Positions 12,430 to 53,025 of a stretch of DNA of 64,000 nucleotides are shown here, in pieces; position 1 is the first letter of the stretch, and each line of letters begins with the position of its first letter. The notes under the pieces are model-generated. The model saw only the letters and a program-made list of their open reading frames with translations, ran no database searches and was not told the origin of the DNA. The position numbers were made by a program, and so were the translations under genes. The DNA comes from Octopus vulgaris (taxonomy: Eukaryota), in the NCBI GenBank assembly GCA_951406725.2, contig OX597837.1, positions 9,424,001-9,488,000 on the forward strand, in the 5' to 3' direction.

Positions 12430-12628
12430 TCACCATGATTGACCGCTAGCTACTAAAGCTTTCTTTTCTTATTCTCTCTCTGTTTATTTTCTCGTGTTCC
12501 TTCCTGTTGAAGAGCATAGACTCGAAACGTAAAATAATTTCTCACCTTCTCGAGCATTAAACTAATACACCTATTTGTTGTTTACACACATGTCTTCGTG
12601 TTTTGTATTTTATAAATTGCAACTATAT
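12430..12628 (+). mobile_element. Short hammerhead-bearing element (family H1)
   Basis: CTGTTGAAGAGCATAGACTCGAAACGTAAAA, homologous to 20555-20772 and 33325-33512. Flanked by (TA)n. Confidence 0.7.
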
Positions 12629-20203: not shown

Positions 20204-20554
20204 AAGAGAGAGACAGAGAGACAGAGAGACGGACAGACAGACAAACGCATAGAGGGGCAGACAGGCAGGCAGAGACTTTCCTATTGGATTGCCTTGCTAA
20301 GAAGCGTGAGTGAACATTCTGCTTTCTTAAATCAGTTTCCTAATTACTCCAATTATGAGTATGGCTTTAAATCCAAGCCTCATGTGTTGCGCTGCGTTCG
20401 ATTTTATCTTGGACCAATTTGTGTATGTATGTATGTATGTATGTATGTATGTATGTATGTATGTATGTATGTATGTATGTATGTATGTATGTATGTATGT
20501 ATGTATGTATCTGTGTGTGTATCTATCTATCTATCAATGTCTATATATATATAC

Positions 20555-20769
20555 AGAACACCATGATGGACCGTTAGCCCCTACACGCATTTTTTTCTCT
20601 CCTTATTTCTCTCCTTGTTTTTTTTTTCTATGTATCTTTCTGTTGAAAGAGCGTAGGCTCGAAACGTAAAAGACTTGTTTTATTTCTATTCCTGAGCGCC
20701 ATACTAATACAATTGTTTGTTTGTACTCCACCTGCCTTCGTCTTTTGTTTATTTTCGTAAACCTTCCCG

Positions 20770-20772
<3 letters not shown>
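20555..20772 (+). mobile_element. Family H1 element, left arm of inverted pair
   Basis: Homologous to 33325-33512. Contains a hammerhead-like motif at 20635-20673. Confidence 0.8.
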
Positions 20773-20819
<47 letters not shown>

Positions 20820-20917
20820 TGTTAAGCAGGACGTCAAACATTAAGCCAAGGCATATGCAATATTATTTATTATAGGAAGAAATTCAAAATCTTACAGCCT
20901 TTTCTGGTTATACGCCA

Positions 20918-21087
20918 TATTAGTATGGCGCTCAGGAATAGAAATAAAACAAGTCTTTTACGTTTCGAGCCTACGCTCTTCGACAGAAAGATACACAGAA
21001 AAGAAACACAGAAAGAAGCAAGGAGAGAAAAAAATGTGTGTAGGGGCTAACGGTCCATCATGGTGTTCTGTATATATATATAGACAT
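20918..21087 (-). mobile_element. Family H1 element, inverted copy
   Basis: Reverse complement of 20537-20709. Confidence 0.85.
20954..20991 (-). ncRNA. Minimal type I hammerhead-like motif (CUGUCGA variant)
   Basis: Minus strand TCTTT-CTGTCGA-A-GAGC-GTAG-GCTC-GAAA-CG-TA-AAAGA: 5-bp stem I, 4-bp stem II, palindromic ACGU stem III, GUA site. Confidence 0.65.
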
Positions 21088-28479: not shown

Positions 28480-28480
<1 letters not shown>

Positions 28481-28602
28481 CTTTACGGAAGGTTTACGAA
28501 AATAAATAAAAGACGAAGGCATGTGGAGTACAAACAAACAAATGTATTAGTATGGCGCTCAGGAATAGAAATAGAACAAGTCTTTTATGTTTCGAGCCTA
28601 CG

Positions 28603-28606
<4 letters not shown>
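28480..28606 (-). mobile_element. Family H1 element, truncated inside the hammerhead motif
   Basis: Reverse complement of 20650-20770. (TA)n on both sides. Confidence 0.8.
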
Positions 28607-33324: not shown

Positions 33325-33512
33325 CCATGATAGATCGGTAGCCACTACACACATTATTTTCTCTCCTTGTTTTTTCTGTGTCCCTTTCTGCAGAAGAGCG
33401 TAGGCTCGAAACGTAAAAGACTTTTTTCTATTCCTGAGCGTTATACTAATACATCTGTTTGTTTTCTACACTACATGTCTTCATCTTTTGTTTTTTTCGT
33501 GAACTCTCCCCC
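33325..33512 (+). mobile_element. Family H1 element
   Basis: CTTTCTGCAGAAGAGCGTAGGCTCGAAACGTAAAAG, with flanks as in 20555-20772. Confidence 0.8.
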
Positions 33513-37763: not shown

Positions 37764-38089
37764 TATGTCCAAGATAATTTAGAGAAAACTAAATAAAAAT
37801 GAACGAAGGGAAACAAAATAAAGTGGCCAGTGACCATAAATATTTTGACGTTTGATTTATCATATATATAAATATATCATTTTAATTTTTTAATTTCATT
37901 CCTGAAGGAGAAATATATCGGGCACACGACAATTTGAACTGAGGCTCTAAGTTCAAATCACACGTCTCTTGAATGGGCTGGAGTATTTCTATTTTGGATG
38001 TATTTGGGGTACTTAATTGTGCTCATGACTTAGTGTTTTGCTTCTTCCATGGGTATGTGTAAGTATCTCATTTATTTCTTTTGCCACAT

Positions 38090-38143
38090 TTATTACTGAC
38101 GAAGGGAGGGTTCTTACGAACTAACCCTGAAATCGGTCCGATA
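38090..38143 (+). ncRNA. Hammerhead-like motif (degenerate stem I)
   Basis: CTGACGA-AGGG(AGGGTT..AA)CCCT-GAAA-TCGG-TC. Confidence 0.5.
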
Positions 38144-38875
38144 TGGTAATAATGGAATTTTTTAGAAATTTCTGTCGGCCTCTTTTTTCGAGTATGGTGA
38201 AAAATTACATGGTTATGGACAATATGTCCAATTTCGGCATATTTGGCATTAGAAATTTTTTCGTTTGCCCTTATTTATAAGTTGTTTATAATTTTAACCT
38301 TTAAAGGTATTTTTTAATATGCTGGCCATTGACAAAATTTTTTTTCGAAAAAATTTTATCCTACATTAAATATATATATATAGCGGCGTACGTGCACTTT
38401 TGCTCACCTGATATATATATATATAAGTATATATGTAAATATATGTGATTTAATGAGTGTTTGCAGGCGTCTGTGTGCGCGTGCTTATGCGTGTGTTTGT
38501 GTGCGTGTATGAAAGTGTGTTTGCACACATGTATGTGTGTATACCATAAATTAAAAGTATTTAAAAAATCGAAAAAGATGAATAGACGAGAGGTGCCTAC
38601 TCTACCAACCAACCAACCAGCCAACAAACCAGCCAGCCACACACATCTGAGGTCCTATCCAGGGATCCACAAATAGCGAAGTCCCGAATACAGAAATATC
38701 ATAAATAGTGTGTATATGTAATATATCAGTTATTAATTCAACTACATACAAGTATATACGTATACACGTATATATACATATATATATGGGTGCGTGTGTT
38801 TGTGTATGCATATGTATGTGTGTGTTTATATATATATATATATATATATGTATGCATTATATATATATATAATTC

Positions 38876-44714: not shown

Positions 44715-44896
44715 ATTCTCAAGAAAAGACGAAGACAGGTGGTAAACAACAGGTGGTGTAAACAACAAATATATATATAGTTTAACGTTCGGGAAGTGAA
44801 AAGGTGTTTAACATTTCGAGCCAAAGCGCTTCCACAGAAAAGAACACAGAAAGAAACAAGGAGAGAAAATAAAGAATGCATAGTGGCTAGTGATCT

Positions 44897-52829: not shown

Positions 52830-53025
52830 ACCGCGTATGTATCGTTGGCGATTTTTTACCTCTGTCTTCCCTTCCTTGGATCTTTCCTTTTCCTATGTTT
52901 CTGACGCAGAGCTCCGCTCGAAACGTTAGCTCCTCCTTCTTTCTTTCCTTTCCTGAGCGTCCAATAACGCTATACTTGTTCCACGTCCTCGCGTTGTTGT
53001 GTTTTCATGTTTGGATTAACTTTAT
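52830..53025 (+). mobile_element. H1-related hammerhead-bearing element
   Basis: GTTT-CTGACGC-A-GAGC-TCC-GCTC-GAAA-CG-TT followed by TTCCTGAGCG..TAATA, as in H1. Confidence 0.65.

Follow-up and report, generated by a model that had tools for sequence, protein, structure and literature searches.

A hammerhead motif with U at core position 6 in the pseudo-LTRs of a Penelope-like element of Octopus vulgaris

H1 copies in the window

The window, i.e. the whole stretch of 64,000 nt analysed here, was taken from Octopus vulgaris contig OX597837.1 (positions 9,424,001 to 9,488,000) and contains six copies of a repeat termed H1 as well as one copy of a sister family. An earlier note, made from the sequence alone, had placed H1 copies at 12430, 20555, 20918(-), 28480(-), 33325 and 44715(-) and a relative at 52830, and all of these were recovered. 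The features are as follows:

12430..12623, plus strand: old H1 copy of subfamily S2, core CUGUUGA at 12504, stems partly decayed
20554..20770, plus strand: H1 copy of subfamily S5, 3′ end of a pseudo-LTR, 5′-truncated, complete to its CCCGT/(TA)n end
20635..20673, plus strand: minimal hammerhead motif, core CUGUUGA at 20640, U6 at 20643, predicted cut after A20668
20771..20817, no strand: (TA)n tract at the 3′ end of the 20554 copy, likely insertion target
20918..21070, minus strand: second H1 copy, inverted, without the last ~60 nt
20954..20991, minus strand: best minimal hammerhead motif, core CUGUCGA at 20986, U6 at 20983, predicted cut after A20959
28480..28606, minus strand: H1 copy cut off within the core, position 6 missing
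33325..33512, plus strand: H1 copy of subfamily S4, core CUGCAGA at 33388, sporadic C6
44715..44900, minus strand: H1 copy of subfamily S3, core CUGUGGA at 44837, GUU site, stems decayed
52830..53022, plus strand: A6 sister-family copy with 3-nt loop II, core at 52901, A6 with A9C

Position 6 of the hammerhead core is normally always A (CUGANGA). The best motif (minus strand) reads as it had been quoted, with stem I UCUUU/AAAGA, stem II GAGC/GCUC, GAAA, a palindromic ACGU and a GUA site, and the proposed layout of a minimal type I hammerhead (stems I and II, palindromic stem III, UH site) was found; the motif at 20640 (plus strand) contains one additional A preceding stem II. The earlier reading of position 6 stands for U6 in four copies (12504+, 20640+, 20986-, 44837-) and C6 in the copy at 33388+, and the sixth copy, at 28480-28606 (minus strand), has no position 6 to count. 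The relative at 52830 keeps A6, as had been claimed, and additionally carries A9C. Descriptors based on CUGANGA overlook the H1 motif owing to U6 in place of A6, which the earlier note had foreseen. In an Rfam scan of 501 nt at 20560-21060, no hammerhead family was found among the 14 matches; for the whole window no hammerhead was present among the 150 of 506 matches listed, which were mostly microsatellite matches. The folding energies of six sequences did not differ significantly from the background (z -0.17 to -1.6).

The copies at 20554 (plus strand) and 20918 (minus strand) share 93.6% identity over 173 columns, and the 5′ break and the upstream flank are common to both. They look like a single insertion that was subsequently duplicated in inverted orientation, so the window would hold about five independent insertions; as the two copies lie on opposite strands, a cis dimer between them is impossible, and a ~170-bp RNA hairpin could be formed by the pair. 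The 20918 copy ends at a small fold-back with 7-bp arms (window 20905-20930), which may be a trace of how the inverted duplication arose. Coding sequence is absent from all six window copies. Apart from H1, a distinct hammerhead-like motif with a canonical core, a long stem II and a longer palindromic stem III is located at 38088-38155 (plus strand) and probably belongs to another Penelope family.

The coding element and its pseudo-LTRs

Among the 30 copies closest to H1, the 3′ end was sharp and the 5′ end ragged, and five extended upstream into a GIY-YIG/RT frame. From one of these a 461-aa RT-endonuclease fragment was obtained and used for a genome search, in which the 92 scored of 24,240 candidates were ~90% identical to it and 90 of the 92 were free of stop codons. 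Twenty loci, picked mainly for long open frames, were fetched from the scored matches. The motif was present on both sides of the ORF in 12 loci and on the 3′ side in seven, the remaining locus having none by the pattern of the script used; all 31 motifs of these loci carried U6. In the 12 two-motif elements the motifs were spaced 4,446-4,580 nt apart (~4.5 kb), and the pseudo-LTRs measured 533-1,583 nt with 97.2-99.8% identity, one of them running on as a tandem.

The organization is exemplified by element L092, which comprises an upstream pseudo-LTR, an ATG 768 nt past the predicted cut, an ORF of 1,079 aa and a downstream pseudo-LTR that stops 103 nt past the predicted cut in (TA)n. The RT domain of the ORF scored 32.2 bits against RVT_1, above the cut-off of 29.6; the C-terminal GIY-YIG domain reached an E value of 0.005 with a score below the Pfam cut-off, and an IIY...YIG motif with a Cys/His pattern was present in the translation. 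A C-x4-C-x2-C linker, the CX2-5CxxC feature, lies immediately N-terminal of GIY-YIG, between RT and endonuclease (EN). Thus, the marks of an EN+ Penelope-like element (PLE) were observed, namely a single RT ORF, GIY-YIG, pseudo-LTRs from a partial tandem and ragged 5′ ends. By the features described in the available part of PMC8557442, the element is assigned to the Neptune/Nematis type, with which it shares the single RT ORF, the CX2-5CxxC linker, the C-terminal GIY-YIG, the pseudo-LTRs and the (TA)n bias. Unlike in those elements, the hammerhead core is non-canonical and in many young copies the ORF runs into a low-complexity tail; the searchable supplement of that paper does not contain the H1 motif. 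In many young copies (L081, L087-L102) the ORF was seen to continue 100-250 codons beyond the endonuclease into a C/T-rich low-complexity tract, the length of which differs between copies.

Since the motif lies on either side of the ORF encoding RT and GIY-YIG, H1 is best described as the 5′-truncated 3′ end (pseudo-LTR) of an autonomous element. The Penelope origin postulated in the earlier note is thereby borne out; its description of H1 as a non-autonomous family ~200 bp in size had to be abandoned, because the motif flanks intact, nearly identical RT and GIY-YIG elements and the short copies are truncated ends of this 4.5-kb element. A non-autonomous retrozyme or SINE borrowing Penelope proteins, suggested by the shortness of most copies and by the lack of coding sequence in the six window copies, is therefore the least probable of the explanations considered. 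Ragged 5′ ends, the five of 30 closest copies that reach the GIY-YIG and RT frame, and the lack of short tandem arrays in the loci inspected all speak against it, and for the U6 family it is refuted by the intact elements with the motif at both ends.

Position 6 and sequence constraint

A search of the genome (2.8 Gb) with the 28-nt motif, in which positions 6 and 7 were left free, yielded 10,905 exact matches, far more than expected by chance, as the reversed-pattern control gave none. U6 was found in 10,449 of the matches (95.8%), A6 in 134 and C or G in 322. A6 is thus rarer than C6 and G6, and A6 copies therefore behave as expected of stray mutation. With a looser pattern, 26,685 U6-type cores (control 912) were counted, and the A6-type cores of all families were fewer (20,658; control 1,184). 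U6 is the family state of the H1 lineage, and amplification with this core, as previously suggested, agrees with these counts. The element is young and recently amplified, with tens of thousands of predicted motif copies. A separate A6 subfamily within H1 was considered and rejected, the 20 sampled A6 loci being scattered across all subfamilies of the flank tree like sporadic mutations. A TA tract 70-135 nt downstream ends 18 of 29 position-ordered U6 copies. Contigs from sequencing runs labelled with four organisms span the motif, many of them departing at the flanks, and these give coverage only. A-to-I editing is not known to revert U6 to A.

In order to follow the motif over time, 219 distinct copies were collected by HMM from all fetched DNA, 199 near-complete copies were aligned and a tree was calculated from the flanks alone. 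For the comparison 159 copies in seven groups were kept; 18 copies fetched for carrying A6 were dropped and two rows were left unassigned. The subfamilies were delimited by eye on the ladder of a FastTree tree that carries no support values; the samples of S5 and S6 are biased to the best-scoring copies. In this tree the A6 families with a 3-nt loop II formed the outgroup and the U6 copies a ladder, along which the divergence from the group majority fell from 15.9% to 2.0% over the seven subfamilies (159 copies). Between the oldest and the youngest majority, 41 of 124 flank sites differ and one of 28 motif sites. Along the whole ladder 43 of 114 ungapped flank columns changed, as compared with none of the 26 non-free motif columns (Fisher p 3e-5).

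The variable motif columns were N7 (U, U, G, A, C, U, U by subfamily; four changes) and H17 (A, A, U, A, A, A, U; three changes, no G majority). Under standard numbering, these are the free positions of the hammerhead. The probability that the only two variable columns are both such pre-named positions by chance is 1 in 378. Rule and numbering agree with the consensus in the available supplement of PMC4209133. Because most members had come from a pattern fixing 13 core letters, the count was repeated with the core left free. Among the first 100 of 19,333 matches listed, counted by eye, U6 was present in 94, A6 in two, C6 in three and G6 in one; N7 was U in 43, C in 23, A in 18 and G in 16, H17 was A in 78 and U in 20, and the remaining core sites were each conserved in at least 88, with the lowest values at CpG sites. 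A further search with stem II left free gave 19,120 matches, with only scattered changes among the matches listed. Every U6 subfamily has C-G at stem I pair 4, where the A6 sisters show G-C or G-U. As stem II and loop II are unvarying in the U6 majorities, the stem covariation sought for the family does not exist within this lineage.

These data provide good sequence evidence that hammerhead-type constraint outlasted the loss of A6: apart from N7 and H17 the motif stayed the same over a span in which a third of the flank sequence diverged. Such a distribution of free and fixed sites is what a hammerhead fold would show, cutting or not, and indicates neither a preference for U6 itself nor cutting of the RNA. 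The endonuclease adjoining old copies is 65-73% identical to the young one. Two old U6 copies (L186:7182 and L190:4752) have a distinct stem II, which contains a U-U mismatch and carries a UUCG loop, and perhaps represent a small subfamily. Five S4 copies that are near-identical and have one and the same unusual flank lie within 25 kb (L056-L058, C1:20.01-20.04 Mb) and are likely a segmental repeat, not separate insertions.

In the closest sister family, A6 was present in 98 and U6 in none of the first 100 of 10,812 matches listed, and U6 is therefore regarded as derived. The same 100 matches contained U4C in 64, so that this A6 family, to which the window copy at 52830-53022 belongs, appears to have fixed another slowing change. 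Loop II varies among the sister families, and stem II is kept. The C4 sister copies resemble a short element of ~220 nt with a common 5′ start (L207-L236), and no ORF was found upstream in 30 loci in the search for a coding partner; since the copies are short, start alike and lack an upstream ORF, it is perhaps the U4C branch that is truly non-autonomous. In the looser A6-type search, about half of the first 100 rows listed came from a further abundant family of minimal A6 hammerheads, whose stem II is longer.

Cleavage, alternative explanations and related systems

Within an element, 2.1 events (substitutions or gaps) over ~520 nt separate the two pseudo-LTRs, versus 5.2-5.3 between elements, whichever side is compared (12 elements). 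The junction of the upstream repeat and the body is an identical 7-nt TA tract in 12 of 12 elements, and long (TA)n follows the outer 3′ end in 11 of 12. Because of this match within elements and the identical junction, both repeats seem to have been copied from one template segment already holding the junction. The circle model in the available part of PMC4209133 fits this pattern, and re-use of a tandem template without a circle fits matched pseudo-LTRs equally well. Of 32 distinct truncated loci, two start exactly at the predicted cut and seven within one base of it, and five start at a TA microhomology in loop II; there was no sharp pile-up at the cut.

With moderate confidence, H1 is taken to be the end (pseudo-LTR) of a PLE that is autonomous, was recently amplified and has U6 fixed, and whose motif is likely a slow, dimer-dependent self-cleaving ribozyme. 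From copying of a single template, it is inferred that the paired motifs cleave slowly, that the product is ligated and that priming takes place at the internal TA tract. In a transcript through both pseudo-LTRs the two motifs would pair via the ACGU palindrome and cut after GUA or GUU in a minority of molecules. Cutting would free a 4.5-kb unit that is likely ligated into a circle and serves as template, and the RT/GIY-YIG protein would nick (TA)n DNA, with priming at a short TA tract located 103 nt downstream of the cut. More than one round of copying would yield an upstream pseudo-LTR that matches or, much more commonly, a truncated short copy as in the window. Speculatively, slow cleavage would leave most of the RNA intact for translation. 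U6 allows U4-G5-U6 to pair with bases of stem III in the monomer. That U6 works by stabilising this inactive fold was considered and rejected, since the open-core fold was less likely than with A6 in three of five subfamily examples and likelier in two.

The main rival to such a throttled ribozyme is a U6 motif that does not cut and persists because its folded RNA serves RT/EN binding, RNA dimerisation or translation, for which shape is needed and catalysis is not; this is possible, though rather doubtful. It would account for the truncated copies that do not start sharply at the cut and for the fixation of a different slowing change, U4C, in the sister family. Core mutants at the CUGA turn are slow (available parts of PMC9901934 and PMC3088659): in the pairwise mutagenesis of the former, single and double CUGA-turn mutants had low activity, with the exception of the C3-G8 swap. 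Minimal PLE hammerheads cleave weakly and as multimers only, according to the part of PMC4209133 at hand, and since they are poor even with A6, A6U might bring the rate to nil. A non-cleaving role is left open in that same part, and the in vivo role of minimal hammerheads in PLEs is called unknown in the available text of PMC7761336. On the other hand, over the divergence of the flanks by a third, no change became fixed in the palindrome or at the catalytic G8 and G12, and the U16.1-H17 rule was upheld (no G majority). Moreover, the natural A6C and U4C variants retain enough activity to work (PMC3088659, in the part available); A6C hammerheads cleave slowly in Mg2+, and well in Mn2+ (available parts of PMC3088659 and PMC7151607), and U4C is slow in vitro and yet sufficient in a viroid (same part of PMC3088659).

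Two explanations without any constraint on the RNA are improbable. The 28-nt block might be conserved as a DNA element, i.e. a promoter or protein site in the pseudo-LTR, its hammerhead likeness being inherited history. The promoter of the downstream unit is located in the pseudo-LTRs according to the accessible part of PMC6765202, and loop II is fixed as strongly as the core, but the changes are confined to N7 and H17, which are free under RNA rules and not under DNA rules, and loop II differs among sister families with stem II retained. Still less credit is given to a ribozyme killed by A6U and carried as a neutral relic by an element not needing it. Naiad and most Chlamys PLEs have spread without a canonical hammerhead (PMC8557442, available part); however, the unchanged motif columns beside the changed flank columns already disfavoured a relic, as did the divergence of the endonuclease beside old copies.

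The slow-ribozyme reading would have wider consequences. The motif is, as far as its sequence goes, a real feature: the ribozyme kind is known, the core variant is new, and its host is an apparently active retroelement. Tentatively, and with less than even confidence, it is proposed that PLEs select throttled or switchable hammerheads, that the A6U ribozyme of this lineage cleaves only when helped, and that the sister family got there via U4C. The help would come from dimerisation across 4.5 kb, from the element's own protein or from a metal other than Mg2+. If this holds, a large class of working animal ribozymes is invisible to current descriptors and A6 is not essential in vivo. H1 offers a natural experiment: the element is intact and recently amplified, its change affects a core base held to be invariant, sister families with A6 occur in the same genome, and the subfamilies form a dated series. 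Should H1 cut, the in vivo core consensus needs widening and animal hammerheads are undercounted by descriptor searches, in the present comparison by more than half of all matches to the two patterns; otherwise the motif has a role other than catalysis.

The H1 motif is a core variant and not a canonical CUGANGA member. In the literature searched, which did not cover the variant collection of Lunse et al. 2017 with its possible U6 cases, no natural A6U hammerhead was found. With the minimal type I hammerheads of PLE pseudo-LTRs in the available part of PMC4209133, H1 shares the short stem I, the unpaired base between A9 and G10.1, the G10.1-C11.1 pair, the palindromic 15.2-16.2 without a loop III, the single motif per pseudo-LTR and the thousands of solo truncated copies; the stem II of the Acropora Neptune example (GGGC/GCUC) is nearly identical to that of H1. 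In contrast, all 56 representatives in Fig. S3 of that paper have A6 and the core change named there is U3-A8, whereas U6 is fixed throughout the H1 lineage, youngest intact copies included. The hammerhead of phage Bcep176 (PMC3088659 and PMC7151607, available parts) also has a natural substitution at core position 6, but it is a C6 in a single phage motif with assayed slow, Mn2+-favoured cleavage, compared with U6 in more than 25,000 predicted animal-retroelement copies with lineage-long conservation. Non-LTR retrozymes (PMC7761336; bioRxiv 10.64898/2026.07.22.740005; available parts) resemble H1 in the type I hammerhead, the Penelope link and the proposed circular template, and differ in being short non-coding tandem arrays, whereas H1 consists of scattered, truncated copies of a 4.5-kb element that encodes protein.
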